This document shows, one piece after another, positions 3,351 through 44,817 of a stretch of 64,000 nucleotides of DNA. Below the pieces are notes generated by a model, which did no database searches, had not been told where the DNA came from, and saw only the letters and a program-made list of their open reading frames with translations. The stretch's first letter is position 1. Each line of letters opens with the position of its first letter. The translations under genes and the position numbers were made by a program. The stretch comes from Nemertoderma westbladi. Lineage: Eukaryota > Animalia > Xenacoelomorpha. The stretch lies in assembly GCA_032718475.1 (NCBI GenBank), contig JAUCBJ010001598.1, positions 1-64,000 on the forward strand. Direction: 5' to 3'.

Positions 3351-3392
3351 AATACTCAAAAAGTAGTAAATAGGCGGAAATCACCACCGTAC

Positions 3393-11530: not shown

Positions 11531-11585
11531 GTTGTTATATAATAAACTTGTTACCATTATACATTTTTCCTAAATTCCAACTTAG

Positions 11586-14006: not shown

Positions 14007-16999
14007 CGTCAGTATTTTTTCAAAACCCCATAAACACCATTGACCTCATTTTTCATAAACAGAAAAAAACACCTAGAAAAATCTGAAATTAGTGAAATAG
14101 ATCCAAACAAGTCTCAGTGAATTATAAATTTAATTATCGATTTGATAAAATAAAAGTAAAGTATACAAAATTGCATTAAATTTGTTTAATTAATAAATTT
14201 GGCGTTTATGTTGTTTTGAAAAAATTGCTTATATATAAATTGTATTGAAAGCATTGTTTTTCAAAACAACACAAATGCCATGTTTCGCAATGATAGATAT
14301 TTTTTTTATCATTATGCGCCAATGAATAAAACTAATATTACATAGGTCAGTAAGGGATATCAAGAATACATTTTTTAGATCAATTCAAATATTTCAAAAA
14401 TATAAGAGTGTAGACAATTGATATTTCAATTCTTAAAAGTCAGAATCCTCCTCATCTGTTTCATTCAACCTATCCGGGACAGAGTTGAGTGAGACCATTC
14501 GTTCATATTCTGAGCAATAAGAAGGTGGAATTACTCCATTTCTGCAGAGTTTCATTAAATCGTTGTACTTTGCAGTGGAGATGGCAACTGGGTGCTAATA
14601 AGCAATCTCAGGAAGGAACGTTATCAGAAGGCCGACCGCGCCTCTGACGTACGATAATAGAATGTTCAACAGCATTACTTTGAGCCGACTCTGTATAAAA
14701 AATACTAATCTTCCCAGAAGAGTTCTCTTTTACAAACTTCACATTTCGAATCTGGCTCCACCCCACTTTTTCGCCGATCTCATTGACATTGTTTTTGAAT
14801 TCAGGATTCTTATCCCAAGAGAAAATATTATCACGACCCATCTTTACTGTTTCATATGGAAATGGTGTATGACGCGCCATACGGATAACTGTTGGCCATT
14901 CAGAAGGTCCCCAGACAGCCTTATGCTTAACAAACGTTTCAATTGTAGAATGAACAGAGTCAACTGGCATCTCAGTGTGACCTGGTAGCAGGAAAGTAAT
15001 GGATATGGTTAAGATGTTAGTAAAATGGCTCAATACCTGGAATAAGGCTGACAAAACCATTCGATTCTTGTTCTGCCCGCTGGTAGAATCACAAAATAGA
15101 TGAACCTCCTTAACAATACAAAGATTTTCTACATCATTTAGGTACTTATACAAGACCGATGCGACTTCATTATATCCACGTTTTCCATCACATTCTCCCC
15201 ACAGAAAACATATGCCCCTCTGAGTATGGCTTTCATAAACGGTCTCATTATAATAGGCATACCTTCGAGAATATCCTACAAGCATTGAATCAGTATGTGG
15301 AGTGTTCAGTACTTTCTGTAGGTCGAAACTCGCGCAACGAAATCCTGGATCTGTTCGCTCCTGTGCAGTTGTAAAGACAACACCAACGGCCTCCTTTTCT
15401 TCGTTATGAGTTTTACTCATGTCATCACTAATTTCCTTCCTTTTGTGCTGCATGCACAAATTGCACTTGTCTTTCTTTGGCATATGGATTCCAAGGTTGA
15501 AATCTTTAAAATAAACACTCCTGAATGTTCCAAACTTAGCACCCCTTGGCTTCTCTCTCTTGTACATCCGATACAGATTTTTCATGCTTCTAACGTCTTT
15601 GGGGAGGTACTTTCGAGAATAATTTTTTCTACAATAGTGTGAAGGTAGGGCCGGCAACTCCCCAATCCAATCCCTGACATCATTTCTTTTGGATTCAGAA
15701 ATAATGTTATGTCTCCCGCCCCTTCCAATTGTTGGCATTGTGGTGCCCCCACTTATTGATTTCTTCTTCGATATAGTACGAAGTTCCTCGGCCGTAACAT
15801 CTAATGTGCATTCTAGAAATTTCTTGCAAACTTGTTTCCTATGGCCACCCCTCAACGCGATAGAATAGGTCATTGTCTGATTGCGTACCGGTGTATCATT
15901 ACCATTACGATGTCGTCGAACTTGAGACACTTCAACACATGATGCAAGGTATGCACGCTGATCGATTATTGTGGGACAGGAATAGTATTCAGTGAACACT
16001 TGTTGCCGCAAATTCTCTGGAATTTTATTTCACTGACGCAAGCACGAACTTTTGCATGGGACCGGGCGAATCTTTTTTTCAACATGAACCTTCCCCTTTG
16101 AGGAAACAAAGGATAATCCTCTCAAACGAGCATCCTTGCGGCTTCCAGTCTCATATGGAAACTTGGACTTCTTTGCATTGGGATTTCCAACCACAGCACC
16201 AACCACACCCGTAGAAAGAACAGCCGAAGGTGTAGAATCCTTAAAACCTGGAAAAAAGTCATCAGAGCTACTGGAATCTGAAGGAACATAGCTACTCCCT
16301 TCATAGTCATATTCTGGATCCACATCTGAATTTGCTGGTTCCACCTCAGTAAAATTGACAACTACCAAATCATCCTGTTGGGCTTCCAGATTCCCACTTT
16401 CTGCACTCATGGTATCAACCATTATTGAAGATACATCGTCATTTACAACATCCCCCTCTTTATTCACAAGTATTTCAAGAAGTTCTAAATCCAGAGTCTC
16501 TTCCATTGTTTCAGGGCAATGTATAGCATGTACGAAAAACCGCAGAAATTAATATGCAGTATACCTGTACCTGTACCTGTACCTGTATATATACAGCTAT
16601 TAATAGGTAGTCCAAATCAGCTGGGTGTCTATTTGAGAGAAAACCATGTTACTAATTGCTTGTTGGCTAAAAAAAATAGCTGAGTACAATGTGCTCCCAG
16701 GTAGGTTCCGTCATTTGTGGTGTTTTAAATTGAATTATAACTGTCCATTTGGCGTTTGTGTGGTTTTTGAAAAATAAAATAGCATCTCATAGACTTTGTC
16801 ATTTGTGGGGTTTTGAAAAAACCATTCCCTGGAGAATGGCGATTGTGTGGTTAACAATTTGTCATATAATGTTAATTCCACCAATGGTAGCCCTATAAAA
16901 TGTTTAGAATAACTGCGGATTATTGTCTAGTATAACGTGACACACATATCTCATTTTTGACAAAAATGTCGTTTGTGGGGTTTTGAAAAAATACCGACG
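14007..16999 (-). mobile_element. About 3-kb cut-and-paste DNA transposon, Sola-like, with about 29-bp TIRs and subterminal repeats
   Basis: cgtcagtattttttcaaaaccccataaac (14007-14035) matches the reverse complement of 16971-16999. Internal gtg.ggttttgaaaaa repeats near both ends. Encloses a transposase. No clean TSD seen. Confidence 0.75.
14433..16506 (-). pseudogene. Disrupted DDD/E transposase (Sola-like)
   Basis: Motifs SHYCR, PKKDKCNLC, FDLQKVLNTP, WGECDGKRGYNEVAS, FCDSTSGQNKN, GHTEMPVDSVHSTIE. An in-frame TGA at 16030-16032 separates ORFs 16030-16506 and 14608-16011. A frameshift and stop near 14600 precede the tail ISTAKYNDLMKLC...DSDF*. Confidence 0.8.
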
Positions 17000-18725: not shown

Positions 18726-20015
18726 CGCAATATTACAGTATTAACGATAACTTAAGACTGCGATTATATTAGATATTAATCAAAATATGACAATTTCTCT
18801 GAAAGCGAGATATGGTACCTATGATGTCTTTTACATAATTATTTTTTTACTTTACACTGGAGAATAAACTTACTATGTTGAAACATTTTTAGGCCCACTG
18901 TATTGAGAGCATATGTTTATTTAATACTGTAGGGCAACTCTACTGTATGCAAGATATTTTGTGCTTTAAGTGTTTTGTAGAGCATTATGTGCTGTACTGT
19001 AGGTTTAATTATTAAAAGCCTATGTGTCATTTATATTTTGTAATTTTTATTAAGTTCATATTTCTTAATTGTATGCGACATATTTTATGCCTGTCCTTTA
19101 CTTTTGGATTAACATATGTTGTTTCACCTATATTTTACATACATTTTTGTACTGAATGTTTATTGAATGGATACAACTTCTACTGTTTCTTAGTCTCTAT
19201 CTGGCAGCGTTGGTTATTGAATAGTAGGCCTACTATATGTAATACTGTAGATAGATTAAAATATAATTAAGATAAATACACCAGCAATAAATTATTCAGT
19301 TTCTTTGTTTACTGAAAGCCAAATTCATGCAATTGAGTCTTCATGATATTTTGTAGGCCTATGTTTCGTTTAAATTGCTTTATAGAAATATTTGAATTTT
19401 ATTGTAACTACTGTACTTGTTATTTGTTATGTAACCAATTAATCTTTGTTTAATTATTCTGTGCTTAACTAACATTAATAGCAATACCATGTTACCAAGG
19501 TTACGTTAAATGTATCGTTTTGTTATCACATGGTACATAAAGTTCGGTGGCCTAATCAATTTAATATTATTGCAATATTAGTTTTATACAAAAACTGTTT
19601 GTGTTGCTTATCATTGCTTATACACCCCACTACTGTACTGTATAATAATACACTGCGACTGCATCATTTCATTTCATCTTATTTTGTATTTCTTATTGTA
19701 TGGTATTTTGTTTGGGGATATTTTTAAATTTTGTTGGTAAATTTATTTTATTTTGTTGGAAATTTAACTTATTTTAAATGGAGTTAATATTTTAAATCTT
19801 CCAATTTTTTGACAAATTATATGTCTATTGTTTTCCTTAATCATATTTCACTGAATAAAATAAGCTATATAGGTATAAATCCTCCGGGAGAAAATCAATT
19901 ACTGCTGGTGTATCGAATATCGAAATTGATTCCATTGTAATGGAAAAAAATACTGTACAATAATTAATTATCATATTTCAGCAGTAAGCCGATATGTAAA
20001 TTACAAATTAATTGT

Positions 20016-20174
20016 TCACTTGGTAAACCGTTGGACATTCTTATATTCCAGGAAGTCGTTTATTGTTTCTGCACATCTGTTAGCGTTTTGTGTTTTGGCA
20101 TCTTGCAGAGAGGCGAAAAAGTCCTGTACCTCTTCGGAATGCTTTTTGTGTTGTTTCAGTCCGTATTCAAAAAG
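20016..20174 (-). pseudogene. DRC3: Exon of dynein regulatory complex subunit 3 (DRC3/LRRC48), probably a partial or pseudogenic copy
   Basis: Minus-strand acceptor ttttccctttag| followed by LFEYGLKQHKKHSEEVQDFFASLQDAKTQNANRCAETINDFLEYK, resembling human DRC3 IFEYGLKQQEKRKTELDTFSECVREAIQEN as recalled. No strong donor; runs to a TGA. Not in the ORF track. Confidence 0.7.
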
Positions 20175-20268
20175 CTAAAGGGAAAATTGTAATTAAACTT
20201 TCCTACAAGAATCAGATGTGCGTATTTCATACCTTGGCAAAAGAACTTACTGTGACTTACTTACTTAC

Positions 20269-21036
20269 GGTTAACTTACTGTACGTGTAAAGGGTTAACT
20301 TACTGTACGTGTAAATGGTTAACTTACTGTACGTGTAAAGGGTTAACTTACTGTACGTGTAAAGGGTTAGTGTAAAGGGTTAACTTACTGTACGTGTAAA
20401 GGGTTAACTTACTGTACGTGTAAAGGGCTAACTTACTGTACGTGTAAAGGGTTAACTTACTGTACGTGTAAAGGGTTAACTTACTGTACGTGTAAAGGGT
20501 TAACTTACTGTACGTGTAAAGGGTTAACTTACTGTACGTGTAAAGGGTTAACTTACTGTACGTGTAAAGGGCTAACTTACTGTACGTGTAAAGGGTTAAC
20601 TTACTGTACGTGTAAAGGGTTAACTTACTGTACGTGCAAAGGGTTAACTTACTGTACGTGTAAAGGCTTAACTTACTGTACGTGTAAAGGGTTAACTTAC
20701 TGTACTTGTAAAGGGTTAACTTACTGTACGTGTAAAGGGTTAACTTACTGTACGTGTAAAGGGTTAACTTACTGTACGTGTAAAGGGTTAACTTACTGTA
20801 CGTGTAAAGGGTTAACTTACTGTACGTGTAAAGGGTTAACTTACTGTACGTGTAAAGGGCTAACTTACTGTAGGTGTAAAGGGTTAACATACTGTACGTG
20901 TAAAGGATTAACTTACTGTACGTGTAAAGGGTTAACTTACTGTACGTGTAAAGGGCTAACTTACTGTACGTGTAAAGGGTTAACTTACTGTACGTGTAAA
21001 GGGTTAACTTACTGTACGTGTAAAGGGTTAACTTAC
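20269..21036. repeat. 24-bp minisatellite (gggttaacttactgtacgtgtaaa, about 32 copies)
   Basis: Period 24 is directly visible. The minus strand reads CA|GTAAGT once per unit. Confidence 0.97.
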
Positions 21037-21204
21037 AGGCGGCAATGTGAATGAAAATGTCGGAGTTACAATCTTGATACAGAATTAAGTAAAATGATTT
21101 ACTGAATTTAAGTACTTGTGTAGGCCTATAGATACTAGATTACTTCTTGAATTTCTTCTCTTTGAACGCCTCCATTGGTTCCTCCCTACCTGTATAGATA
21201 TCCT

Positions 21205-22061
21205 AGTACTACTAGGATTGGTATGATGCATTGCAACTGCATTTTCAAGAATGCTGTGCCGGCCTGCCGACAAAATCGCGCCGCCACAACTCCCTATCAC
21301 CCATGACATTTGCTAGATCGTCCGCATCTTCAAGGCCAGTTTCCTTGAAGATGCGTCGCAAGAAAGTCATGGGCTGTCCACCATGCTTACTCACTCCATG
21401 AGGCCGCCGAAGCACAATATTATGCACTGGCTGGTCCTCACGGCGAAAACAATGTCCTGCAAAGCGGAGGCGACTTTGTTCTAGTGTCAAGCTTGGGGGA
21501 ACCAATGCGACACCTCCAATGTTATATAGTGTCTGGTTGGAGATGTGTGCAATGCACTTGACACAGTGAACCCGACGTAGCATTCTTGTGAATGTGCCAT
21601 CCAGAGATTTGGTGTCCTCAGCAGTTAGAGCCCAGCATGGCCTCCCATAGAGGAGTACAGGAACTACTGGTGCTCTAAATAATCGGATCTTAAGTTTCCG
21701 ATTAATTCTCTGTGACTTCCAAATCCTGGAAAGCCTTTTCAAAGCTGCCCGGCCATGCCTTTCCCTTACGTATTCGAAAGTGAATATGGGTATGCTGACT
21801 TCCGGATCCATGATCCCAGGTAACATAAGTCGTCCACATGCTCAAGCATACCATCATTTGAGCTTATGCTCATCCGGGCAGAGACTTGCTGAGAACTTTC
21901 AAAGTTAACTGTCAAAATGTTGGTCTTATTGGAGTTAATAAAAAGACCCACACTACAGTAGAAGCAGCTTGTTCTAATGAGCTGAGGAGCCTTTGGGCTA
22001 CCTCTAGTGATTCTGAGAGTACTCCTAAGTCATCAGCAAAGTCTAGATCAGTTAGGTACTT
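21205..22061 (-). mobile_element. 5'-truncated RTE-clade LINE fragment (RT C-terminus and 3' end), degraded
   Basis: YLTDLDFADD, CYLGSWI and RLRFAGHCFRR motifs. Paralogous to 25150-25990. (TAG)n tail at about 21205-21215. Contains frameshifts. Confidence 0.9.
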
Positions 22062-24512
22062 TATCCTTATACACGTTTCTTTGACCTCCTCCAATGGTTC
22101 CTCCCTACCGGTAAAGATATACTAGTACAAATTTCTTTGACCTCCTCTAGTGGTTCCTCCTTACCGGTATAGATATACTAGTACACTTTTCTTTGAATCC
22201 TCCAGTGGTTCCTCCCTACCTGTATAGATATACTAGTACACTTTTCTTTGAAGGCCTCCAGTGGTTCCTCCATGCCTGTATAGATATTCTAGTACACTTT
22301 TCTTTGACCTCCTCCAGTGGTTCCTCCCTACCTGTATAGATATACTAGTACACTTTTCTTTGACCTCCTCCAGTGGTTCCTCCGTACCTGTATACAGTAG
22401 ATATACTAGTACACTTTTCTTTGACCTCCTCCAGTGGTTCCTCCCTACCTGTATAGATATACTAGTACACTGTTCTTTGACCTCCTCCAGTGGTTCCTCC
22501 CTACCTGTATAGATATACTAGTACACTTTTCTTTGACCTCCTCCAGTGGTTACTCCCTACCTGTATAGATATACTAGTACACTTTTCTTTGACCTCCTCC
22601 AGTGGTTCCTCCCTACCTGTATAGATATACTAGTACACTTTTCTTTGACCTCCTCCAGTGGTTCCTCCGTACCTGTATACAGTAGATATACTAGTACACT
22701 TTTCTTTGACCTCCTCCAGTGGTTCCTCCCTACCTGTATAGATATACTAGTACACTTTTCTTTGACCTCCTCCAGTGGTCCCTCCCTACCTGTATAGATA
22801 TACTAGTACACTTTTCTTTGACCTCCTCCAGTGGTTCCTCCCTACCTGTATAGATATACTAGTACACTTTTCTTTGACCTCCTCCAGTGGTTCCTCCCTA
22901 CCTGTATAGATATACTAGTACACTTTTCTTTGAAGGCCTCCAGTGGTTCCTCCCTACCTGTATAGATATACTAGTACACTTTTCTTTGAACTCCTCCAGT
23001 GGTTCCTCCCTACCTATATAGATATACTAGTACACTTTTCTTTGACCTCCTCCAGTGGTTCCTCAGTACCTGTATACAGTAGATATACTAGTACACTTTT
23101 CTTTGACCTCCTCCAGTGGTTCCTCCCTACCTGTATAGATATACTAGTACACTTTTCTTTGACCTCCTCCAGTGGTTCCTCCCTACCTGTATAGATATAC
23201 TAGTACACTTTTCTTTGAATCCTCCAGTGGTTCCTCCCTACCTGTATAGATATACTAGTACACTTTTCTTTGAAGGTCTCCAGTGGTTCCTTCCTACCTG
23301 TATAGATATACTAGTACACTTTTCTTTGAAGGTCTCCAGTGGTTCCTCCCTACCTGTATAGATGTACTAGTACACTTTTCTTTGAATCCTCCAGTGGTTC
23401 CTCCCTACCTGTATAGATATACTAGTACACTTTTCTTTGAAGGTCTCCAGTGGTTCCTCCCTACCTGTATAGATGTACTAGTACACTTTTCTTTGACCTC
23501 CTCCAGTGGTTCCTCCCTACCGGTATAGATAGATATACTAGTACACTTTTCTTTGAAGGCCTCCAGTGGTTCCTCCCTACTTGTATAGATATACTAGTAC
23601 ACTTTTCTTTGACCTCCTCCAGTGGTTCCTCCCTACCTGTATAGATATACTAGTACACTTTTCTTTGAATCCTCCAGTGGTTCCTCCCTACCTGTATAGA
23701 TATACTAGTACACTTTTCTTTGAAGGTCTCCAGTGGTTCCTCCCTACCTGTATAGATATACTAGTACACTTTTCTTTGACCTCCTCCAGTGGTTCCTCCC
23801 TACCTGTATAGATATACTAGTAGACTTTTCTTTGAATCCTCCAGTGGTTCCTCCCTACCTGTATAGATATACTAGTACACTTTTCTTTGAAGGTCTCCAG
23901 TGGTTCCTCCCTACCTGTATAGATGTACTAGTACACTTTTCTTTGACCTCCTCCAGTGGTTCCTCCCTACCTGTATAGATATACTAGTACACTTTTCTTT
24001 GACCTCCTCCAGTGGTTCCTCCCTACCTGTATAGATATACTAGTACACTTTTCTTTGAATCCTCCAGTGGTTCCTCCCTACCTGTATAGATATACTAGTA
24101 CACTTTTCTTTGAAGGCCTCCAGTGGTTCCTCGATGCCTGTATAGATATACTAGTACACTTTTCTTTGAAGGCCTCCAGTGGTTCCTCCCTACCTGTATA
24201 GATATACTAGTACACTTTTCTTTGAATCCTCCAGTGGTTCCTCCCTAGCTGTATAGATATACTAGTACACTTTTCTTTGACCTCCTCCAGTGGTTCCTCC
24301 CTACCTGTATAGATATACTAGTACACTTTTCTTTGACCTCCTCCAGTGGTTCCTCCCTACCTGTATAGATATACTAGTACACTTTTCTTTGAATCCTCCA
24401 GTGGTTCCTCCCTACCTGTATAGATATACTAGTACACTTTTCTTTGAAGGCCTCCAGTGGTTCCTCCATGCCTGTATAGATATACTAGTACACTTTTCTT
24501 TGACCTCCTCCA

Positions 24513-25991
24513 TAGATAGATTCTACCGAACAACAAGAGTCCCACAAGAAATGAAAACAAATAAGTTGGTACCAGTTCCCAAGAAGGGCAACCTAACACT
24601 CTATGGTTCTTTTCGGGGAATCTCATTGATCTCGATTGCTGCAAAGCTATACAATAGGATTCTATTAAATCGCATCAGGGATCCCATTGAGAGACTGCTC
24701 CGTGGAAATCAGAATGGGTTCCGTAAAGGTCGTGGGACCATGGAGCCCATTTTGGCACTTAGAAGGATAATTGAAGAGTTATCAAAAAAGAAAGACAGGC
24801 ATCTGGCTGTTATCTTTGTTGACTTCTTCAAGGCCTTTGATTCAGTCTCTCGCTTACGTATGTTCAGCGTACTTTCATTATATGGGATTCCAGATGAAAT
24901 TATTGCAGCAATCAGATCAGTATACGATGGTTCGACAACATTTGTGTCTACTGTTGACGGTGATCCGTCAAGTATCCGGTGACAGAACCATTTGAAGTGT
25001 TATGGGGCGTCCTCCAAGGAGACACACTTGCACCATTCTTGTTCATTATTGTGGTTGACTATGTTCTACGCATGTCTTTAGATCATTATAATGATGATGG
25101 GGTGATGATAACTCCACCTACTGGCTCCAGAAGTCGAGGAAATCCTGCCAAGTACCTAACTGATCTAGACTTTGCTGATGACTTAGGAGTACTCTCAGAA
25201 TCATTAGAGGGAGCCCAACGGCTCCTCAGCTCATTAGAACATGCTGCTTCTAGTGTTGGTCTTTTTATTAACTCCAGAAAGACCAAAATTCTGACAGTTA
25301 ACTTTGAAAGTCCTCAGCAAGTCTCTGATCGGATGAGCATAAGCTCAAAGGATGGTATGCTTGAGCATGTGGACGACTTCTGTTACCTGGGATCATGGAT
25401 CCGGAAGTCAGGTGAGGACCTTCGAATACGTAAGGGAAAGGCATGGGCAGCCTTGAATAGGCTTTCCAGGATTTGGAAGTCACCGAGAATTAATCGGAAA
25501 CTTAAGGTCCGATTATTTAGAGCAGCAGTAGTTCCAGTACTCCTCTACGGGAGTCCATGCTGGGCTCTAACTGCTGAGGACACCAAATCTCTGGATGGCA
25601 CATTCACAAGAATGCTACGCCGGGTTCATTGTGTCAAGTACAATGCACACATCTCCAACCAGACACTATATAACATTGGAGGTGTCTCATTGGTTCCCCC
25701 AAGCTTGATACTAGAACAAAATCGCCTCCGCTTTGCAGGACATTGCTTTCGCCGTGAGGACCAGCCAGTGCATAATCTTGTACTTTGGCAGCCTCATGGA
25801 GTGAATAAGCATGGTGGACAGCCCATGACTTTCTTGAGACGCATCTTAAAGGACACTGGCCTTAAAGATGCGGATGATCTAGCAAATGTCATGGGTGATA
25901 GGGAGTTGTGGCGGTGCAATTTTGTTGACAAGCCGGCACAGCATTCTTAAAAATGCAGCTGCAATGCAGCATGCCGATCCTAGTAGTAGTA
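24513..25991 (+). mobile_element. 5'-truncated RTE-clade LINE inserted in the satellite, 11-bp TSD
   Basis: RT motifs VPVPKKG, RGISL, QNGFRKGRGT, FVDFFKAFDSV, GVLQGDTLAP, FADD. Frameshift at about 24979. (TAG)n tail. GACCTCCTCCA at 24502-24512 and 25992-26002. Confidence 0.93.
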
Positions 25992-28900
25992 GACCTCCTC
26001 CAGTGGTTCCTCCCTACCTGTATAGATATACTAGTACACTTTTCTTTGAACTCCTCCAGTGGTTCCTCCCTATCGGTATAGATATACTAGTACACTTTTC
26101 TTTGAACTCCTCCAGTGGTTCCTTCCTACCTGTATAGATATACTAGTACACTTTTCTTTGACCTCCTCCAGTGGTTTCTCCCTACCTGTATAGATATACT
26201 AGTACACTTTTCTTTGAACTCCTCCAGTGGTTCCTCCCTACCTGTATAGATATACTAGTACACTTTTCTTTGACCTCCTCCAGTGGTTCCTCCCTACCTG
26301 TATAGATATACTAGTACACTTTTCTTTGAACTCCTCCAGTGGTTCCTCCCTACCTGTATAGATATACTAGTACACTTTTCTTTGAAAGTCTCCAGTGGTT
26401 CCTCCCTACCTGTATAGATATACTTGTACAATTTTCTTTGTAGGTCTCCAGTGGTTCCTCCCTACCTGTATAGATATACTAGTACACTTTTCTTTGAAGG
26501 CCTCCAGTGGTTCCTTCCTACCTGTATAGATATACTAGTACACTTTTCTTTGAACTCCTCCAGTGGTTCCTCCCTACCTGTATAGATATACTAGTACACT
26601 TTTCTTTGAAAGTCTCCAGTGGTTCCTCCCTACCTGTATAGATATACTTGTACAATTTTCTTTGTAGGTCTCCAGTGGTTCCTCCCTACCTGTATAGATA
26701 TACTAGTACACTTTTCTTTGAAGGCCTCCAGTGGTTCCTCCCTACCTGTATAGATATACTAGTACACTTTTCTTTGAAGGCCTCCAGTGGTTCCTCCCTA
26801 CCTATATATATATATACTAGCACACTTTTCTTTGAAGGTCTCCAGTGGTTCCTTCCTACCTGTATAGATAGTAAACTTTTCTTTGACCTCCTCCAGTGGT
26901 TCCTCCCTACCTGTATAGATATACTAGTACACTTTTCTTTGAAGGCCTCCAGTGGTTCCTCCCTGCCTGTATAGATATACTAGTACACTTTCCTTTGACC
27001 GCCTCCAGTGGTTCCTTCCTACCTGTATAGCTAGTACACTTTTCTTTGACCTCCTCCAGTGGTTCCCCCCTACCTGTATAGATATACTAGTACACTTTTC
27101 TTTGAAGGCCTCCAGTGGTTCCTCCCTACCTGTATAGATAGATATACTAGTACACTTTTCTTTGAAGGCCTCCAGTGGTTCCTCAAGATATACTAGTACA
27201 CGTCTCTTTGAAGGCCTGCAGTGGTTCCTCCCTACCGTATATATATACTAGTACACTTTTCTTTGAAAGCCTCCGCAGTGGTTCCATCCTACCTGTATAT
27301 CTAGTACACTTTTCTTTAAACTCCTCCAATGGTTCCTCCCTATCTGTATAGATAGATATACTAGTACACTCCTCCAGCGGTTCCTCCCTACCTGTATAAT
27401 ACTAGTACACTTTTCTTTGACCTCCTACAGTGGTTCCTCCCTACCTGTATAGATATACTAGTACACTTTTCTTTGAACTCCTCCAGTGGTTCCTCCCTAC
27501 CGGTATAGATATACTAGTACACTTTTCTTTGACCTCCTCCAGTGGTTCCTTCCTACCTGTATAGATAGTACACTTTTCTTTCAAGGCCTCCAGTGGTTCC
27601 TCCCTACCTGTATAGATAGATATACTAGTACACTTTTCTTTGACCTCCTCCAGTGGTCTCTCCCTACCTGTATAGATAGATATACTAGTAAACTTTTCTT
27701 TGAACTCCTCCAGTGGTTCCTCCCTACCTGTATAGATATACTAGTACACTTTTCTTTGAACTCCTCCTGTGTAGTTCCTCCCTACCTGTATAGATACTAG
27801 TACACTTTTCTTTGAAGGTCTCCAGTGGTTCCTTCCTACCTGTATATATATACTAGTACACTTTTCTTTGACCTCCTCCAGTGGTTCCTCCCTACCTGTT
27901 CTTTGAAGGCCTCCAGTGGTTCCTCCCTACCTGTATAGATATACTAGTACACTTTTCTTTGAACTCCTCCAGTGGTTCCTCCCTATCGGTATAGATATAC
28001 TAGTAAACTTTTCTTTGAAGGTCTCCAGTGGTTCCTTCCTACCTGTATAGATATACTAGTACACTTTTCTTTGAACTCCTCCAGTGGTTCCTCCCTACCT
28101 GTATAGATATACTAGTACACTTTTATTTGAAGGTCTCCAGTGGTTCCTTCCTACCTGTATAGATATACTAGTACACTTTTCTTTGAACTCCTCCAGTGGT
28201 TCCTCCCTACCTGTATAGATATACTAGTACACTTTTCTTTGACCTCCTCCAGTGGTTCCTTCCTACCTGTATAGATAGATATACTAGTACACTTTTCTTT
28301 GACCTCCTCCAGTGGTCTCTCCCTACCTGTATAGATAGATATACTAGTACACTTTTCTTTGAAGGCCTCCAGTGGTTCCTCCCTACCTGTATAGATAGAT
28401 ATACTAGTACACTTTTCTTTGAAGGCCTCCAGTGGTTCCTCAAGATATACTAGTACACGTCTCTTTGAAGGCCTGCAGTGGTTCCTCCCTACCGTATATA
28501 TATACTAGTACACTTTTCTTTGAAAGCCTCCGCAGTGGTTCCATCCTACCTGTATATCTAGTACACTTTTCTTTAAACTCCTCCAATGGTTCCTCCCAAT
28601 CTGTATAGATAGATATACTAGTACACTCCTCCAGCGGTTCCTCCCTACCTGTATAATACTAGTACACTTTTCTTTGACCTCCTACAGTGGTTCCTCCCTA
28701 CCTGTATAGATATACTAGTACACTTTTCTTTGAACTCCTCCAGTGGTTCCTCCCTACCGGTATAGATATACTAGTACACTTTTCTTTGACCTCCTCCAGT
28801 GGTTCCTTCCTACCTGTATAGATAGTACACTTTTCTTTCAAGGCCTCCAGTGGTTCCTCCCTACCTGTATAGATAGATATACTAGTACACTTTTCTTTGA

Positions 28901-31900
28901 CCTCCTCCAGTGGTCTCTCCCTACCTGTATAGATAGATATACTAGTAAACTTTTCTTTGAACTCCTCCAGTGGTTCCTCCCTACCTGTATAGATATACTA
29001 GTACACTTTTCTTTGAACTCCTCCTGTGTAGTTCCTCCCTACCTGTATAGATACTAGTACACTTTTCTTTGAAGGTCTCCAGTGGTTCCTTCCTACCTGT
29101 ATATATATACTAGTACACTTTTCTTTGACCTCCTCCAGTGGTTCCTCCCTACCTGTTCTTTGAAGGCCTCCAGTGGTTCCTCCCTACCTGTATAGATATA
29201 CTAGTACACTTTTCTTTGAACTCCTCCAGTGGTTCCTCCCTATCGGTATAGATATACTAGTACACTTTTCTTTGAAGGTCTCCAGTGGTTCCTTCCTACC
29301 TGTATAGATATACTAGTACACTTTTCTTTGAACTCCTCCAGTGGTTCCTCCCTACCTGTATAGATATACTAGTACACTTTTATTTGAAGGTCTCCAGTGG
29401 TTCCTTCCTACCTGTATAGATATACTAGTACACTTTTCTTTGAACTCCTCCAGTGGTTCCTCCCTACCTGTATAGATATACTAGTACACTTTTCTTTGAC
29501 CTCCTCCAGTGGTTCCTTCCTACCTGTATAGATAGATATACTAGTACACTTTTCTTTGACCTCCTCCAGTGGTCTCTCCCTACCTGTATAGATAGATATA
29601 CTAGTACACTTTTCTTTGAAGGCCTCCAGTGGTTCCTCCCTACCTGTATAGATAGATATACTAGTACACTTTTCTTTGAAGGCCTCCAGTGGTTCCTCAA
29701 GATATACTAGTACACGTCTCTTTGAAGGCCTGCAGTGGTTCCTCCCTACCGTATATATATACTAGTACACTTTTCTTTGAAAGCCTCCGCAGTGGTTCCA
29801 TCCTACCTGTATATCTAGTACACTTTTCTTTAAACTCCTCCAATGGTTCCTCCCTATCTGTATAGATAGATATACTAGTACACTCCTCCAGCGGTTCCTC
29901 CCTACCTGTATAATACTAGTACACTTTTCTTTGACCTCCTACAGTGGTTCCTCCCTACCTGTATAGATATACTAGTACACTTTTCTTTGAACTCCTCCAG
30001 TGGTTCCTCCCTACCGGTATAGATATACTAGTACACTTTTCTTTGACCTCCTCCAGTGGTTCCTTCCTACCTGTATAGATAGTACACTTTTCTTTCAAGG
30101 CCTCCAGTGGTTCCTCCCTACCTGTATAGAAAGATATACTAGTACACTTTTCTTTGACCTCCTCCAGTGGTCTCTCCCTACCTGTATAGATAGATATACT
30201 AGTAAACTTTTCTTTGAACTCCTCCAGTGGTTCCTCCCTACCTGTATAGATATACTAGTACACTTTTCTTTGAACTCCTCCTGTGTAGTTCCTCCCTACC
30301 TGTATAGATACTAGTACACTTTTCTTTGAAGGTCTCCAGTGGTTCCTTCCTACCTGTATATATATACTAGTACACTTTTCTTTGACCTCCTCCAGTGGTT
30401 CCTCCCTACCTGTTCTTTGAAGGCCTCCAGTGGTTCCTCCCTACCTGTATAGATATACTAGTACACTTTTCTTTGAACTCCTCCAGTGGTTCCTCCCTAT
30501 CGGTATAGATATACTAGTACACTTTTCTTTGAAGGTCTCCAGTGGTTCCTTCCTACCTGTATAGATATACTAGTACACTTTTCTTTGAACTCCTCCAGTG
30601 GTTCCTCCCTACCTGCATAGATATACTAGTACACTTTTATTTGAAGGTCTCCAGTGGTTCCTTCCTACCTGTATAGATATACTAGTACACTTTTCTTTGA
30701 ACTCCTCCAGTGGTTCCTCCCTACCTGTATAGATATACTAGTACACTTTTCTTTGACCTCCTCCAGTGGTTCCTTCCTACCTGTATAGATAGATATACTA
30801 GTACACTTTTCTTTGACCTCCTCCAGTGGTCTCTCCCTACCTGTATAGATAGATATACTAGTACACTTTTCTTTGAAGGCCTCCAGTGGTTCCTCCCTAC
30901 CTGTATAGATAGATATACTAGTACACTTTTCTTTGAAGGCCTCCAGTGGTTCCTCAAGATATACTAGTACACGTCTCTTTGAAGGCCTGCAGTGGTTCCT
31001 CCCTACCGTATATATATACTAGTACACTTTTCTTTGAAAGCCTCCGCAGTGGTTCCATCCTACCTGTATATCTAGTACACTTTTCTTTAAACTCCTCCAA
31101 TGGTTCCTCCCTATCTGTATAGATAGATATACTAGTACACTCCTCCAGCGGTTCCTCCCTACCTGTATAATACTAGTACACTTTTCTTTGACCTCCTACA
31201 GTGGTTCCTCCCTACCTGTATAGATATACTAGTACACTTTTCTTTGAACTCCTCCAGTGGTTCCTCCCTACCGGTATAGATATACTAGTACACTTTTCTT
31301 TGACCTCCTCCAGTGGTTCCTTCCTACCTGTATAGATAGTACACTTTTCTTTCAAGGCCTCCAGTGGTTCCTCCCTACCTGTATAGATAGATATACTAGT
31401 ACACTTTTCTTTGACCTCCTCCAGTGGTCTCTCCCTACCTGTATAGATAGATATACTAGTAAACTTTTCTTTGAACTCCTCCAGTGGTTCCTCCCTACCT
31501 GTATAGATATACTAGTACACTTTTCTTTGAACTCCTCCTGTGTAGTTCCTCCCTACCTGTATAGATACTAGTACACTTTTCTTTGAAGGTCTCCAGTGGT
31601 TCCTTCCTACCTGTATATATATACTAGTACACTTTTCTTTGACCTCCTCCAGTGGTTCCTCCCTACCTGTTCTTTGAAGGCCTCCAGTGGTTCCTCCCTA
31701 CCTGTATAGATATACTAGTACACTTTTCTTTGAACTCCTCCAGTGGTTCCTCCCTATCGGTATAGATATACTAGTACACTTTTCTTTGAAGGTCTCCAGT
31801 GGTTCCTTCCTACCTGTATAGATATACTAGTACACTTTTCTTTGAACTCCTCCAGTGGTTCCTCCCTACCTGTATAGATATACTAGCACACTTTTATTTG

Positions 31901-34900
31901 AAGGTCTCCAGTGGTTCCTTCCTACCTGTATAGATATACTAGTACACTTTTCTTTGAACTCCTCCAGTGGTTCCTCCCTACCTGTATAGATATACTAGTA
32001 CACTTTTCTTTGACCTCCTCCAGTGGTTCCTTCCTACCTGTATAGATAGATATACTAGTACACTTTTCTTTGACCTCCTCCAGTGGTCTCTCCCTACCTG
32101 TATAGATAGATATACTAGTACACTTTTCTTTGAAGGCCTCCAGTGGTTCCTCCCTACCTGTATAGATAGATATACTAGTACACTTTTCTTTGAAGGCCTC
32201 CAGTGGTTCCTCAAGATATACTAGTACACGTCTCTTTGAAGGCCTGCAGTGGTTCCTCCCTACCGTATATATATACTAGTACACTTTTCTTTGAAAGCCT
32301 CCGCAGTGGTTCCATCCTACCTGTATATCTAGTACACTTTTCTTTAAACTCCTCCAATGGTTCCTCCCTATCTGTATAGATAGATATACTAGTACACTCC
32401 TCCAGCGGTTCCTCCCTACCTGTATAATACTAGTACACTTTTCTTTGACCTCCTACAGTGGTTCCTCCCTACCTGTATAGATATACTAGTACACTTTTCT
32501 TTGAACTCCTCCAGTGGTTCCTCCCTACCGGTATAGATATACTAGTACACTTTTCTTTGACCTCCTCCAGTGGTTCCTTCCTACCTGTATAGATAGTACA
32601 CTTTTCTTTCAAGGCCTCCAGTGGTTCCTCCCTACCTGTATAGATAGATATACTAGTACACTTTTCTTTGACCTCCTCCAGTGGTCTCTCCCTACCTGTA
32701 TAGATAGATATACTAGTAAACTTTTCTTTGAACTCCTCCAGTGGTTCCTCCCTACCTGTATAGATATACTAGTACACTTTTCTTTGAACTCCTCCTGTGT
32801 AGTTCCTCCCTACCTGTATAGATACTAGTACACTTTTCTTTGAAGGTCTCCAGTGGTTCCTTCCTACCTGTATATATATACTAGTACACTTTTCTTTGAC
32901 CTCCTCCAGTGGTTCCTCCCTACCTGTTCTTTGAAGGCCTCCAGTGGTTCCTCCCTACCTGTATAGATATACTAGTACACTTTTCTTTGAACTCCTCCAG
33001 TGGTTCCTCCCTATCGGTATAGATATACTAGTACACTTTTCTTTGAAGGTCTCCAGTGGTTCCTTCCTACCTGTATAGATATACTAGTACACTTTTCTTT
33101 GAACTCCTCCAGTGGTTCCTCCCTACCTGCATAGATATACTAGTACACTTTTATTTGAAGGTCTCCAGTGGTTCCTTCCTACCTGTATAGATATACTAGT
33201 ACACTTTTCTTTGAACTCCTCCAGTGGTTCCTCCCTACCTGTATAGATATACTAGTACACTTTTCTTTGACCTCCTCCAGTGGTTCCTTCCTACCTGTAT
33301 AGATAGATATACTAGTACACTTTTCTTTGAAGGCCTCCAGTGGTTCCTCCCTACCTGTATAGATATACTAGTACACTTTTCTTTGACCTCCTCCAGTGGT
33401 CTCTCCCTACCTGTATAGATAGATATACTAGTACACTTTTCTTTGAAGGCCTCCAGTGGTTCCTCCCTACCTGTATAGATAGATATACTAGTACACTTTT
33501 CTTTGAAGGCCTCCAGTGGTTCCTCAAGATATACTAGTACACGTCTCTTTGAAGGCCTGCAGTGGTTCCTCCCTACCGTATATATATACTAGTACACTTT
33601 TCTTTGAAAGCCTCCGCAGTGGTTCCATCCTACCTGTATATCTAGTACACTTTTCTTTAAACTCCTCCAATGGTTCCTCCCTATCTGTATAGATAGATAT
33701 ACTAGTACACTCCTCCAGCGGTTCCTCCCTACCTGTATAATACTAGTACACTTTTCTTTGACCTCCTACAGTGGTTCCTCCCTACCTGTATAGATATACT
33801 AGTACACTTTTCTTTGAACTCCTCCAGTGGTTCCTCCCTACCGGTATAGATATACTAGTACACTTTTCTTTGACCTCCTCCAGTGGTTCCTTCCTACCTG
33901 TATAGATAGTACACTTTTCTTTCAAGGCCTCCAGTGGTTCCTCCCTACCTGTATAGATAGATATACTAGTACACTTTTCTTTGACCTCCTCCAGTGGTCT
34001 CTCCCTACCTGTATAGATAGATATACTAGTAAACTTTTCTTTGAACTCCTCCAGTGGTTCCTCCCTACCTGTATAGATATACTAGTACACTTTTCTTTGA
34101 ACTCCTCCTGTGTAGTTCCTCCCTACCTGTATAGATACTAGTACACTTTTCTTTGAAGGTCTCCAGTGGTTCCTTCCTACCTGTATATATATACTAGTAC
34201 ACTTTTCTTTGACCTCCTCCAGTGGTTCCTCCCTACCTGTTCTTTGAAGGCCTCCAGTGGTTCCTCCCTACCTGTATAGATATACTAGTACACTTTTCTT
34301 TGAACTCCTCCAGTGGTTCCTCCCTATCGGTATAGATATACTAGTACACTTTTCTTTGAAGGTCTCCAGTGGTTCCTTCCTACCTGTATAGATATACTAG
34401 TACACTTTTCTTTGAACTCCTCCAGTGGTTCCTCCCTACCTGTATAGATATACTAGTACACTTTTATTTGAAGGTCTCCAGTGGTTCCTTCCTACCTGTA
34501 TAGATATACTAGTACACTTTTCTTTGAACTCCTCCAGTGGTTCCTCCCTACCTGTATAGATATACTAGTACACTTTTCTTTGACCTCCTCCAGTGGTTCC
34601 TTCCTACCTGTATAGATAGATATACTAGTACACTTTTCTTTGACCTCCTCCAGTGGTCTCTCCCTACCTGTATAGATAGATATACTAGTACACTTTTCTT
34701 TGAAGGCCTCCAGTGGTTCCTCCCTACCTGTATAGATAGATATACTAGTACACTTTTCTTTGAAGGCCTCCAGTGGTTCCTCAAGATATACTAGTACACG
34801 TCTCTTTGAAGGCCTGCAGTGGTTCCTCCCTACCGTATATATATACTAGTACACTTTTCTTTGAAAGCCTCCGCAGTGGTTCCATCCTACCTGTATATCT

Positions 34901-37900
34901 AGTACACTTTTCTTTAAACTCCTCCAATGGTTCCTCCCTATCTGTATAGATAGATATACTAGTACACTCCTCCAGCGGTTCCTCCCTACCTGTATAATAC
35001 TAGTACACTTTTCTTTGACCTCCTACAGTGGTTCCTCCCTACCTGTATAGATATACTAGTACACTTTTCTTTGAACTCCTCCAGTGGTTCCTCCCTACCG
35101 GTATAGATATACTAGTACACTTTTCTTTGACCTCCTCCAGTGGTTCCTTCCTACCTGTATAGATAGTACACTTTTCTTTCAAGGCCTCCAGTGGTTCCTC
35201 CCTACCTGTATAGATAGATATACTAGTAAACTTTTCTTTGAACTCCTCCAGTGGTTCCTCCCTACCTGTATAGATATACTAGTACACTTTTCTTTGAACT
35301 CCTCCTGTGTAGTTCCTCCCTACCTGTATAGATACTAGTACACTTTTCTTTGAAGGTCTCCAGTGGTTCCTTCCTACCTGTATATATATACTAGTACACT
35401 TTTCTTTGACCTCCTCCAGTGGTTCCTCCCTACCTGTTCTTTGAAGGCCTCCAGTGGTTCCTCCCTACCTGTATAGATATACTAGTACACTTTTCTTTGA
35501 ACTCCTCCAGTGGTTCCTCCCTATCGGTATAGATATACTAGTACACTTTTCTTTGAAGGTCTCCAGTGGTTCCTTCCTACCTGTATAGATATACTAGTAC
35601 ACTTTTCTTTGACCTCCTCCAGTGGTTCCTCCCTACCTGTATAGATATACTAGTACACTTTTATTTGAAGGTCTCCAGTGGTTCCTTCCTACCTGTATAG
35701 ATATACTAGTACACTTTTCTTTGAACTCCTCCAGTGGTTCCTCCCTACCTGTATAGATATACTAGTACACTTTTCTTTGACCTCCTCCAGTGGTTCCTTC
35801 CTACCTGTATAGATAGATATACTAGTACACTTTTCTTTGACCTCCTCCAGTGGTCTCTCCCTACCTGTATAGATAGATATACTAGTACACTTTTCTTTGA
35901 AGGCCTCCAGTGGTTCCTCCCTACCTGTATAGATAGATATACTAGTACACTTTTCTTTGAAGGCCTCCAGTGGTTCCTCAAGATATACTAGTACACGTCT
36001 CTTTGAAGGCCTGCAGTGGTTCCTCCCTACCGTATATATATACTAGTACACTTTTCTTTGAAAGCCTCCGCAGTGGTTCCATCCTACCTGTATATCTAGT
36101 ACACTTTTCTTTAAACTCCTCCAATGGTTCCTCCCTATCTGTATAGATAGATATACTAGTACACTCCTCCAGCGGTTCCTCCCTACCTGTATAGATATAC
36201 TAGTACACTTTTCTTTGAACTCCTCCTGTGTAGTTCCTCCCTACCTGTATAGATACTAGTACACTTTTCTTTGAAGGTCTCCAGTGGTTCCTTCCTACCT
36301 GTATATATATACTAGTACACTTTTCTTTGACCTCCTCCAGTGGTTCCTCCCTACCTGTTCTTTGAAGGCCTCCAGTGGTTCCTCCCTACCTGTATAGATA
36401 TACTAGTACACTTTTCTTTGAACTCCTCCAGTGGTTCCTCCCTATCGGTATAGATATACTAGTACACTTTTCTTTGAAGGTCTCCAGTGGTTCCTTCCTA
36501 CCTGTATAGATATACTAGTACACGTCTCTTTGAAGGCCTGCAGTGGTTCCTCCCTACCGTATATATATACTAGTACACTTTTCTTTGAAAGCCTCCGCAG
36601 TGGTTCCATCCTACCTGTATATCTAGTACACTTTTCTTTAAACTCCTCCAATGGTTCCTCCCTATCTGTATAGATAGATATACTAGTACACTCCTCCAGC
36701 GGTTCCTCCCTACCTGTATAATACTAGTACACTTTTCTTTGACCTCCTACAGTGGTTCCTCCCTACCTGTATAGATATACTAGTACACTTTTCTTTGAAC
36801 TCCTCCAGTGGTTCCTCCCTACCGGTATAGATATACTAGTACACTTTTCTTTGACCTCCTCCAGTGGTTCCTTCCTACCTGTATAGATAGTACACTTTTC
36901 TTTCAAGGCCTCCAGTGGTTCCTCCCTACCTGTATAGATAGATATACTAGTACACTTTTCTTTGACCTCCTCCAGTGGTCTCTCCCTACCTGTATAGATA
37001 GATATACTAGTAAACTTTTCTTTGAACTCCTCCAGTGGTTCCTCCCTACCTGTATAGATATACTAGTACACTTTTCTTTGAACTCCTCCTGTGTAGTTCC
37101 TCCCTACCTGTATAGATACTAGTACACTTTTCTTTGAAGGTCTCCAGTGGTTCCTTCCTACCTGTATATATATACTAGTACACTTTTCTTTGACCTCCTC
37201 CAGTGGTTCCTCCCTACCTGTTCTTTGAAGGCCTCCAGTGGTTCCTCCCTACCTGTATAGATATACTAGTACACTTTTCTTTGAACTCCTCCAGTGGTTC
37301 CTCCCTATCGGTATAGATATACTAGTACACTTTTCTTTGAAGGTCTCCAGTGGTTCCTTCCTACCTGTATAGATATACTAGTACACTTTTCTTTGAACTC
37401 CTCCAGTGGTTCCTCCCTACCTGTATAGATATACTAGTACACTTTTATTTGAAGGTCTCCAGTGGTTCCTTCCTACTTGTATAGATATACTAGTACACTT
37501 TTCTTTGAACTCCTCCAGTGGTTCCTCCCTACCTGTATAGATATACTAGTACACTTTTATTTGAAGGTCTCCAGTGGTTCCTCCCTACCTGTATAGATAT
37601 ACTAGTACACTTTTCTTTGAAGGTCTCCAGTGGTTCCTTCATACCTGTATAGATATACTAGTACACTTTTCTTTGACCTCCTCCAGTGGTTCCTCCCTAC
37701 CGGTATAGATATACTAGTACACTTTTCTTTGAACTCTTCCAGTGGTTCCTCCCTAACTGTATAGATACTAGTACACTTTTCTTTGACCTCCTCCAGTGGT
37801 CTCTCCCTACCTGTATAGATAGATATACTAGTAAACTTTTCTTTGAAGACCTCCAGTGGTTCCTTCCTACCTGTATAGATGATATACTAGTACACTTTTC

Positions 37901-38138
37901 TTTGACCTCCTCCAGTGGTTCCTCAAGATATACTAGTACACTTTTCTTTGAACTCCTCAAGTGATTCCTCCCTACCTGGATAGATACTACTGTTACTGTA
38001 GTACACTTTTCTTTGAATACTCCCCCAGTGGTTCCTCCCTACCTGTATAGATACTACATGTAGTACACTTTTCTTTGAAGGACTCCAGTGGTTCCTCCCT
38101 ACCTGTATAATACTAGTACACTTTTCTTGGAAGACCTC

Positions 38139-38574
38139 TGTAACAGGCTGAGATAACTCCCCACCAAATATGATTCCCCAGTCTTCTCAGCCTAGGCTGA
38201 GAACACTCCCCAGTTGTCTCCCTATATTTCTCAATTAACGGAAAGAAGCAGGTTACATATTGGCGGGCTTTTCTAACCAAAACAATAAACGATAACTCAA
38301 TAACATAGGTTACAGTTTTATTTTTGCTATATACGAAAATAACACAGGTACGGATATGAATAATAACTCAATTAGGGGAGTCATCTCAGCCTAAGGGGAG
38401 TCATCTCAGCCTAAGGGGAGTCATCTCAGCCTAAGCTAAGGTAGTGTTCTCAGCCTAGGCTGAGATAATTGGGGAGTGTTCTCAGCTTAGGCTGAGATAA
38501 CTGGGGAGTGTTCTCAGCCTAGGCTGAGATGACTGGGTAGTCATTTCAAGAGGGAGTTTTCTCAGCCTTGTACA
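38139..38574. mobile_element. Non-autonomous TIR element with TGT...ACA ends and 4-bp TSD (Ginger-like)
   Basis: tgtaacaggctgagataactcc versus the reverse complement of ggagttttctcagccttgtaca. CCTC at 38135-38138 and 38575-38578. Internal ctcagcctaggctgag palindromes. Internal segment is related to about 10480-10560. Confidence 0.7.
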
Positions 38575-38597
38575 CCTCCAGTGGCTCCTCCCTATAC

Positions 38598-38695
38598 CTG
38601 TATAGATATACTACAATGTAGTACACTTTTCTTTGAAGGCCCCCCCCCCCCAGAAGTGGTTCCCCCATGCCTGGTAACTGGTTGAATTTCCTCCC
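38598..38695 (-). pseudogene. DRC3: DRC3/LRRC48 exon remnant, founder copy of the 56-bp satellite
   Basis: Minus strand reads GRKFNQLPGMGEPL[poly-G]AFKEKCT[7-nt insert]SISIQ|gt, matching human DRC3 GNNLSYLPGVGELLETYKDKFVIICVN as recalled. The phase-0 donor fits the acceptor at 20175. Net +17 nt frameshift as assembled. Confidence 0.65.
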
Positions 38696-39232
38696 AGCTC
38701 AAAGTATTGAAATTGCGGGTTGTGCCTTAATCTTCCTTCATTGTCTTGCCGAAGGAAACGCAGTGATAACAATGCCAAAATGTATACATTAATAAAATTA
38801 TATGATATTAAAGTGAAACTGGGCTACAATGGCATTTATATCTCTAGCTGTACACAAGCTTGGCAGCATTTGATAGATATTGGTAAGATGACTAGGCCAG
38901 TGGATACAAAACTATCTGGTTGACTAATGGGTGTGTGGGTTGGGTGTTAGTGGAAGTTGATTATTCAGAGGCCATTCCTAAATCCTGAACTGTCATTGGC
39001 TGATTGGTTAATTATTGTTATCTTTGTCGTAGGTTTCTTATTTTTATACCGGTACCGGTATAATCTGTCTGTCTAGTCCAGTCCAGGAGCTGAGTCCAGT
39101 AATCTTAACTGAACGTACTTCAGTCTGTCAGTACTTGGTGGAATACGGCATTGAACATAGGCCTGTAGGCAAATGGCAGAATGGCAAAGCACATACAGAC
39201 ATCTGGACATAGTCAGATAGTTTACCTTACCG

Positions 39233-42985: not shown

Positions 42986-43475
42986 TTAATTTAAAAATCT
43001 GTTAAAATGACAATATGGCAATAGATCAACATCTTTCAATTTATCAGTAAAAATATTTACATTTGCAGAATTGACAATTTCTTCGGGTAAGGAATTCCAA
43101 ATATCTACAGTTCTGTTTGAAAAAGAGTTTTTTACAATTTGTAGACGGCAAAACGATTTGAAAAGCTTACGGTTATGGCCTCTATTTCTAATATTGGTAC
43201 TTAAAGTGAAAAAGTCATTAAAATTTAGATCAACATCATTATGAAAAATACTATACACCATTTTTAAATCATAAATATGCCTACGTACTTTACTTCTAGA
43301 GGTTGTAGCTTAAGAAAATTAATTCTCTCCATGTAACTACGGCTGCCGAGGTTACAGCGCTTAAAAAGACGCCGGGTGAAGTAACGCTGAACCCGTTCGA
43401 TTAAATCAATACTACCTAACGTAAATGGAGAGCAAACGGCAGTACAATATTCTAGTAATGGTCTGGCAACATATT
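42986..43475 (-). mobile_element. 3' fragment of a CR1-type LINE
   Basis: YVARPLLEYC...IERVQRYFTRRL...SYMERI and RGHNRKL...NSFSNRTVDIWNSLPEEIV motifs, frameshifted. Confidence 0.85.
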
Positions 43476-44098
43476 TGCTTACATTAGTAGCTTTCCGCAC
43501 TCATACTGTACCTATGTTATTATCACTACGTCATATTGACAAAAGCTACAAAATCGAGTAGGCCTATAAAGCTGTTATATAATTGTTTGTTAATAATGTG
43601 TTTTTTGTGAGTAATAATTAAGTTCCTTGCCTTTTTTTGTTTCTAGTCTACGTATGTATATCCTTCACATTTTAAATAATTGCACTGCAAACTTGATATT
43701 ATAAATAATTACCGGTGTAGCAGAGAATTTCCACCTGAGATTTGGGGATTGATAATTCCGTTGTATTATTATAGTAGACAGATACTAAACCAAACCAAAG
43801 TCGCAACAATTCTACTTACCGTACTTATAAGAGGACGGGGTTCGTGATTAGTAGTTATTATTAAAAAGTGCCCCCACTCGGCTATATAGAGTGCACCCTC
43901 GGTTGCTACTGGGTTGCGATTATTAGCATGTTATAGTATATACTGTTCTTTACTGTGTAGCTGAGTGAACCGACTTTGTATCTGGGTCACACAAATTTAA
44001 ATGGTCTTATAGGCCATGGCGGCTCTACCCATGTCGGGATATATATTTAATTAAATATTATTGCACATCATAACACATCATTAAATATTATTTTCTAG

Positions 44099-44335
44099 CT
44101 GGATATGTTGACCTCAACCAAATCCCGCAATCCGACCCCAAGGCGAGCACCATGCAGTGGCAGCAGAGTTACCATGGCGACAGCGGGGTCCAGTCTGGGT
44201 CTACGACCCACGCCCATTCGATGAGCAGTAGGGACAGGCGTGACTCTGAGATGGACGATGAATTGGATCCAGCCAAGCTCTTGTATGATTGGGAGACAAA
44301 CTACGGACACGGGTACACACCCCAGCAGGTCGATG
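44099..44335 (+). CDS. CTNNB1: Beta-catenin exon carrying the phosphodegron
   Basis: Acceptor ttttctag|. WQQSYHGDSGVQSGSTTHAHS contains the DSGxxS degron with S33/S37/T41/S45 equivalents. LYDWE...GYTPQQVD follows. Phase-1 donor G|GTAAGT. Confidence 0.92.
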
Positions 44336-44817
44336 GTAAGTAAATACAAACTACGGACACGGGTACATACCCCAGCAGGTCGACGGTAAGTAAATACAAA
44401 CTACGGACACGGGTACACACCCCAGCAGGTCGACGGTAAGTAAATACAAACTACGGACACGGGTACACACCCCAGCAGGTCGATGGTAAGTAAATACAAA
44501 CTACGGACACGGGTACACGGGTACACACCCCAGCAGGTCGACGGTAAGTAAATACAAACTACGGACACGGGTACACACCCCAGCAGGTCGACGGTAAGTA
44601 AATACAAACTACGGACACGGGTACACGGGTACACACCCCAGCAGGTCGACGGTAAGTAAATACAAACTACGGACACGGGTACACACCCCAGCAGGTCGAT
44701 GGTAAGTAAATACAAACTACGGACACGGGTACACGCTACACGGGTACACGGGTACACACCCCAGCAGGTCGATGGTAAGTAAATACAAACTACGGACACG
44801 GGTACACACCCCAGCAG
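44296..44817 (+). repeat. 50-bp minisatellite: last 40 nt of the beta-catenin exon plus first 10 nt of the intron (10 copies, 9 intact GTAAGT donors)
   Basis: Unit acaaactacggacacgggtacacaccccagcaggtcgaYg|gtaagtaaat. Some copies carry internal gggtacac duplications. Confidence 0.95.

Follow-up and report, generated by a model that had tools for sequence, protein, structure and literature searches.

Organization of the locus

The window, by which we mean the whole 64-kb stretch of DNA analysed here, holds a complete TTC7 gene and exons of a beta-catenin gene on its plus strand and, between them on the minus strand, a fragment of DRC3 (LRRC48) with a 56-bp satellite in its intron (Table 1). The presence of the array itself was confirmed. 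With one monomer as blastn query against the whole window, 270 matches were obtained, every one of them on the minus strand and within 21155-38644; 246 of them were at least 45 nt long, the mean identity was 92.8%, and no match lay in the window outside this interval. The array spans ~16 kb, with ~270 tandem copies. The range given for it in the initial annotation (22062-38695) described a real array, but two monomer pieces lie beyond that range and two pieces of a non-LTR retrotransposon (LINE) interrupt it. An Rfam search found nothing inside the array, and viral contigs gave no match to the monomer pattern.

At the protein level, the two spliced beta-catenin exons shared 60-65% identity with named brachiopod, amphioxus, centipede and sea-urchin sequences, which marks the DNA as animal; none of the 120 matches listed was a close relative. 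Directly upstream of TTC7 there is a 43-bp array with an acceptor-like motif inside (1-216), and intron 1 of this gene contains a tRNA-like Rfam match (2682-2753, 43.9 bits) between inverted arms (2614-2800), probably a tRNA-derived repeat. A direct tandem duplication of ~485 bp, 95% alike, lies behind the gene (12805-13758). Long minus-strand open reading frames of 473 and 172 codons at 14200-16850 (DUF7869, E=8e-10), flanked on either side by short repeated motifs, look like a DNA transposon, and two short minus-strand frames at 42989-43500 resemble what we take to be the end of a decayed retrotransposon reading frame.

Table 1 Features of the window and the evidence on which they rest
Feature	Position	Strand	Evidence or remark
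Complete three-exon TTC7 gene, 844 codons, no stop	498-12371	+	Pfam TTC7_N
Decayed ~55-bp repeats of TTC7 second acceptor and exon start	9316-9445, 3806-3989	+	Sequence comparison
Acceptor AG (20176-20175) and downstream DRC3 exon, residues 287-331, cut at 20038	20038-20176	-	Homology, run contigs
Separate 24-bp array, 32.5 copies, same intron	20269-21036		Straddles no junction
Last monomer remnants, past retrotransposon piece	21155-21220	-	Two pieces, blastn
Second, shorter LINE piece, same family as 24513-25990, inside a monomer	21230-22065	-	Sequence comparison
Simple monomer block	22060-24520	-	44 matches; three of the four GGC-junction units inside (22278, 24140, 24474)
Decayed non-LTR retrotransposon (LINE) piece, inside a monomer	24513-25990	+	RVT_1 E=7e-10, DUF6451
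Simple monomer block	25990-27150	-	21 matches
Higher-order repeat block	27150-37300	-	186 monomer matches, 1257-bp unit
Degenerate array edge	37300-38140	-	16 monomer matches
Palindromic insert between first copy and array, ~430 nt	38140-38570		Arms 38145-38220 and 38494-38568, 85% alike
First, exon-attached monomer; donor GT 38597-38596	38596-38673	-	10-nt G-run insertion and 7-nt insertion
Unique 5' exon remnant, 10 codons, GRKFNQLPGM, DRC3 residues 260-269	38666-38695	-	Best of 514 offsets in L001 DRC3
Beta-catenin exons	starting by 44100	+	Homology
50-bp array, ~10 units, predicted to combine 40 nt from the end of a beta-catenin exon with 10 nt of donor	44296-44800	+	First unit reads as in-frame exon end
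47-bp satellite, 14.8 kb, 315 copies, predicted acceptor and start of next beta-catenin exon	49176-64000	+	TRF; continues past window end

DRC3 origin and structure of the 56-bp array

A metagenome scan returned four loci (L001-L004), L001 among them coding for a complete DRC3 (E=8e-182 against PDB chain 9fqr_Qv). When the 5' remnant (38666-38695), a reference monomer (24416-24466) and the downstream exon (20038-20174), each cut out by its coordinates in a script, were joined, the peptide aligned without gaps to residues 260-331 of L001, with 46% identity over 72 amino acids and a pairwise E-value of 3e-23. The initial annotation had named this joined peptide as one of two points on which its DRC3 reading could fail, and the similarity proved significant; the other, a monomer spread over many unrelated loci, found no support within the window. 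Relative to DRC3/LRRC48 (PDB 9fqr_Qv and 8j07_3), the three pieces encode these residues, which belong to the coiled-coil region, in order, whereas the LRR domain and the C-terminal part are absent from the fragment and its frame is broken. The downstream exon consists of 45 open codons and begins, as predicted, with a phase-0 acceptor before LFEYGLKQH (AG at 20176-20175). It reached the DRC3 chains in PDB on its own (E=0.0046), and as a profile of 20040-20174 with four relatives it gave E=3.7e-7 for 9fqr_Qv and E=5.8e-7 for 8j07_3. The upstream 27 residues alone were identical to L001 DRC3 at 13 of 27 positions, the best of 497 offsets. Similarity to DRC3 ends near 38695, the frames further upstream scoring -31, -30 and -6 against residues 240-259; it may be that the 5' break marks the edge of an intron.

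For the monomer alone, held in fixed register, seven of 17 residues were identical to L001 (best of 507 offsets) and none of 20000 DNA shuffles matched its score; against two more distant DRC3s, four of 17 were identical, and five and three of 20000 shuffles, respectively, scored as high. Because the 17 codons match the DRC3 of other animals in register, the sequence was already coding long before its amplification. The same match refutes the reverse direction, in which an existing satellite unit would have been recruited into a DRC3 exon; no point in favour of such recruitment was found, and we give it practically no credence. The monomer peptide alone retrieved nothing from PDB at E up to 10 and only tblastn matches with E=3.6-11, the short peptides of the 5' piece retrieved nothing from PDB at E up to 10, a 70-codon frame across 38614-38823 had no PDB or Pfam match, and word-based protein searches gave no long DRC3 relatives. 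Register-exact protein homology, together with a spliced contig described below, supports the view, already put forward in the initial annotation, that the monomer corresponds to the last 51 nt of a DRC3 exon followed by the first 5 nt of the intron, that is, its donor. Conservation of this intron position in other animals found no support: L001-L004 are unbroken across it, P0002-P0004 start at the same residue merely because it is Met, and P0005 extends at least six residues upstream. The DRC3 contigs L002-L004 appear to be partly spliced, with introns retained.

The unit had been described as 17 codons plus gtagg on the minus strand, which agrees with unit 24416-24466, whose 17 open codons end in CAG and are followed by GTAGGG. 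Across the array we counted 205 CAG/GTA and four CAG/GCA junctions; many units are deleted or shifted, and 215 cut units, when compared by distance, fell into 62 distinct types. The A-F codon type quoted at first is ancestral but not typical, with 36 exact copies compared with 70 and 55 for two derived types. Exon-type A-F codons were present in all four units with the exon-type GGC junction, which are mutually non-independent, compared with 30 of 181 GT-type units. These four units look like relics of the founder, and the retention of the ancestral GGC ATG by some units could be verified exactly, as CAGGCATGG at 38673, 24474 and 22278. The G-run in the first copy could in part be a sequencing error. 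It had also been thought that the array merges directly into the unique piece, but the palindromic insert, which is probably MITE-like, intervenes. The 1257-bp higher-order units form long head-to-tail runs of near-identical multi-monomer blocks, with identities of 98.7-100% among six copies and of 92-97% for another two. An alignment of the two retrotransposon pieces has 53 substitutions over 829 columns (6.4%).

Two look-alike sites were found 56 nt apart in register, in agreement with the microhomology-mediated tandem duplication that had been proposed. The array most likely began with a 56-bp duplication between these similar sites, one exonic and the other at the donor. Since one whole exon with its donor stayed upstream, such a duplication would have done no harm even to an active gene, as in arrays of the human F7 type, where the first donor is used. 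The array would then have been enlarged by unequal exchange, the retrotransposons would have inserted afterwards, and the 1257-bp block would have multiplied last.

Relationship of the fragment to the expressed DRC3

To relate the locus to expressed DRC3, four sequencing runs (X1-X4) were compared with window positions 19000-20265. Run X2, listed as 'DNA?', probably represents RNA, because it covers the downstream exon and has no depth over the intron end or the flank; no run labelled RNA was listed in the run search. An X2 contig of 2004 nt joins monomer sequence to the acceptor at 20176. The 30 letters beyond the acceptor have 114 exact copies in the array and none elsewhere in the window, and the broken first copy is not among these matches. 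The distance from the exon to the contig ends is 1081 nt on one side and 923 nt on the other, which would fit a full-length DRC3 mRNA. X2 departs from the window at 20038, and its continuation had no match in the window at three mismatches. At position 20140, all four runs have C and the window has T; the C restores an Arg conserved in relatives, and the T could reflect either a rare allele or a sequence error. It should be noted that the unit of the 24-bp array holds a donor-like GTAAGT motif on the minus strand, and that run X3 joins this array at 20253 without a short piece that is present in the window and in X1.

The intact acceptor, the 45 open codons and the link between monomer and exon in X2 would all be expected if the window contained a working DRC3 with a giant satellite intron, its first donor being spliced as in human F7. 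However, the first copy carries two insertions and mismatches X2, the exon is cut at 20038, and tblastn with four DRC3 queries found only one significant exon in the 64-kb window and no other DRC3 exon, the LRR domain included, so that we regard a working gene at this site as very improbable. The initial annotation missed that this is not the expressed gene but a broken and truncated piece.

In X1 and X4, two DNA paths each were observed at 20038-20082. The window-like path had a depth of 26.1 in X1 and 27.6 in X4, and the second path, which shares ~25 nt with X2 and then continues into a GT donor, had 26.3 and 23.3; the flank beside them had 29.2 and 29.8, with one piece at 18 and 15.7, contig depth being a weak measure that gives no copy number. 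X3 contains the window path only, in one unbroken contig. The second path was thus present in two of the three DNA-like runs and the window path in all three, so that the 20038 junction is no assembly error; X1 and X3 are one sample, maybe the window's own source. A second DRC3 locus is likely to exist, the intact locus being seen for only ~30 letters. We therefore favour, with good but not full confidence, the reading that the locus is a dead two-exon duplicate of a DRC3 gene expressed elsewhere, with the satellite in its intron.

It could be argued instead that DRC3 has a single locus with two alleles, the window being a rearranged dead haplotype and the intact allele having the same array. 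The two exon paths differ at only ~1 site in 139, the last 80 nt of the intron have no listed branch in any run, and the retrotransposon pieces are 6.4% apart, so the array may predate the split. Yet both paths were near flank depth rather than half of it in two samples, and the fragment is enclosed by an intact TTC7 and by beta-catenin; two alleles at one locus are in our opinion unlikely. The same comparison, with far more divergence between the retrotransposon pieces than between the exon paths and no branch in the intron, means that the array is possibly older than the duplication, and we rate the chances that the intact gene also carries it as even. Under the favoured reading of a dead duplicate, both ends of the fragment fall inside exons around an 18.4-kb intron, which would be surprising after a random duplication if the intron had not been shorter at the time. 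Capture of the fragment by a DNA transposon is unsupported, as a search of the window found no long inverted repeat enclosing it.

A function for the array was also considered, in which ~200 repeated donors would bind U1 snRNP or produce antisense RNA tuning DRC3 or beta-catenin. CAG/GTA is kept in 205 of ~270 units, and a few kb separate the array from the beta-catenin exons downstream. On the other hand, many units are deleted or shifted, recent copying alone predicts that the GT is kept, and X2 has no depth over the intron end or flank within the compared region (19000-20265). Such a function seems to us highly improbable; the fragment probably has no function and is inert, and the array is probably neutral repeat DNA.

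Comparison with known systems and arrays at predicted neighbouring splice junctions

Satellite DNA with higher-order repeats is well represented by primate alpha satellite. The DRC3 array resembles it in having ~93% alike monomers in near-identical larger units, degenerate edges and retrotransposon insertions, and differs in being short and single and in having an identifiable coding ancestor. Introns may also be gained by tandem duplication of an AG/GT site, the AG of the downstream copy serving as acceptor and the intron being the duplicate. This candidate was rejected: the acceptor used in X2, at 20176, follows a pyrimidine tract in unique sequence and is not a monomer.

Repeats spanning a splice junction are an already described kind, which the initial annotation had not mentioned, and the DRC3 array belongs to a class of which a few human genes offer smaller examples. 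Minisatellites whose first monomer lies across an exon-intron boundary occur in human F7, 6-16 (IFI6), CBS, LMNB2 and PDGF, the F7 repeat in IVS7 having 5-9 copies of 37 bp and the CBS repeat lying in IVS13, and splicing is confined to the most upstream donors (PMC1557585). As in F7-type minisatellites, the first DRC3 unit straddles the exon end and the donor is repeated down the intron, all 205 CAG/GTA junctions lying between the first copy and the acceptor. As far as the human cases are described there, the DRC3 array has roughly ten to fifty times more copies (~270 over 16 kb with a higher-order repeat, compared with 5 to ~26), a larger share of coding exon in the monomer (51 of 56 nt, compared with 4 of 37 in F7), and as its host a broken fragment rather than a working gene (PMC1557585). 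F7-type minisatellites lie in an expressed host that is spliced from its most upstream donor or donors; the expressed DRC3 form derives from somewhere other than the window copy, and its own locus may carry the array. Internal tandem repeats at exon-intron boundaries are also described for human segmental duplications (PMC2812944). Both cases involve repeats that vary at exon-intron boundaries of gene copies duplicated recently; in the cases described there the splicing of expressed paralogues is altered, whereas here the repeat is of satellite scale and no transcript was observed from the fragment. A literature search mostly outside subscription papers did not turn up a satellite derived from DRC3, or an invertebrate in which arrays are biased to splice junctions throughout the genome, and a term search of a satellite review gave no passage on exon origin (PMC10048060).

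Repeats at predicted splice junctions were also observed in both neighbouring genes, those of TTC7 being decayed. For the 47-bp satellite, 12 codons matched the residues that follow in 120 beta-catenin homologues at a median of nine of 12 positions (at least nine in 96 of the 120), which none of 20000 shuffles equalled; 286 acceptor motifs were present, and the monomer peptide had no PDB match with an E-value of 10 or less. The exon to which this satellite belongs must continue outside the window. The satellite also matches itself strongly when offset by 6281 bp, which points to a duplication or a large higher-order unit. In TTC7, ~500 bp of the intron end occur twice, 5.5 kb apart (3392-3884, upstream, and 8896-9400, 88% identical).

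Three of the eight longer-period arrays in the 64-kb window straddle predicted coding junctions, namely the DRC3 donor, the beta-catenin donor and the beta-catenin acceptor; the decayed repeats at the TTC7 acceptor would be a fourth set. Compared with ~2% expected for each, this excess corresponds to P ~0.0004-0.0008, or ~0.01 without the DRC3 array, in a rough count whose classes were picked after seeing the data from one window; it hints at a bias in this lineage. The lineage might build satellites on splice junctions as a rule, through microhomology duplications linked to splicing or transcription, a tentative proposal that we consider rather doubtful. Its corollary, that live genes single out one of hundreds of identical splice sites, is put forward no less tentatively.

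Satellites with a provable ancestor are rare. Here, the ancestor, the duplication junction, the array, the insertions and the higher-order repeat are all legible in the sequence, making the locus a clean case of the birth of a satellite from coding DNA. It is also a warning for annotation, as the fragment resembles a DRC3 gene with a giant intron and is none. If the clustering at splice junctions should hold genome-wide, this organism would be a natural test of how a donor or acceptor is chosen among hundreds, and the beta-catenin gene next door would be the best place to study such splice-site choice.
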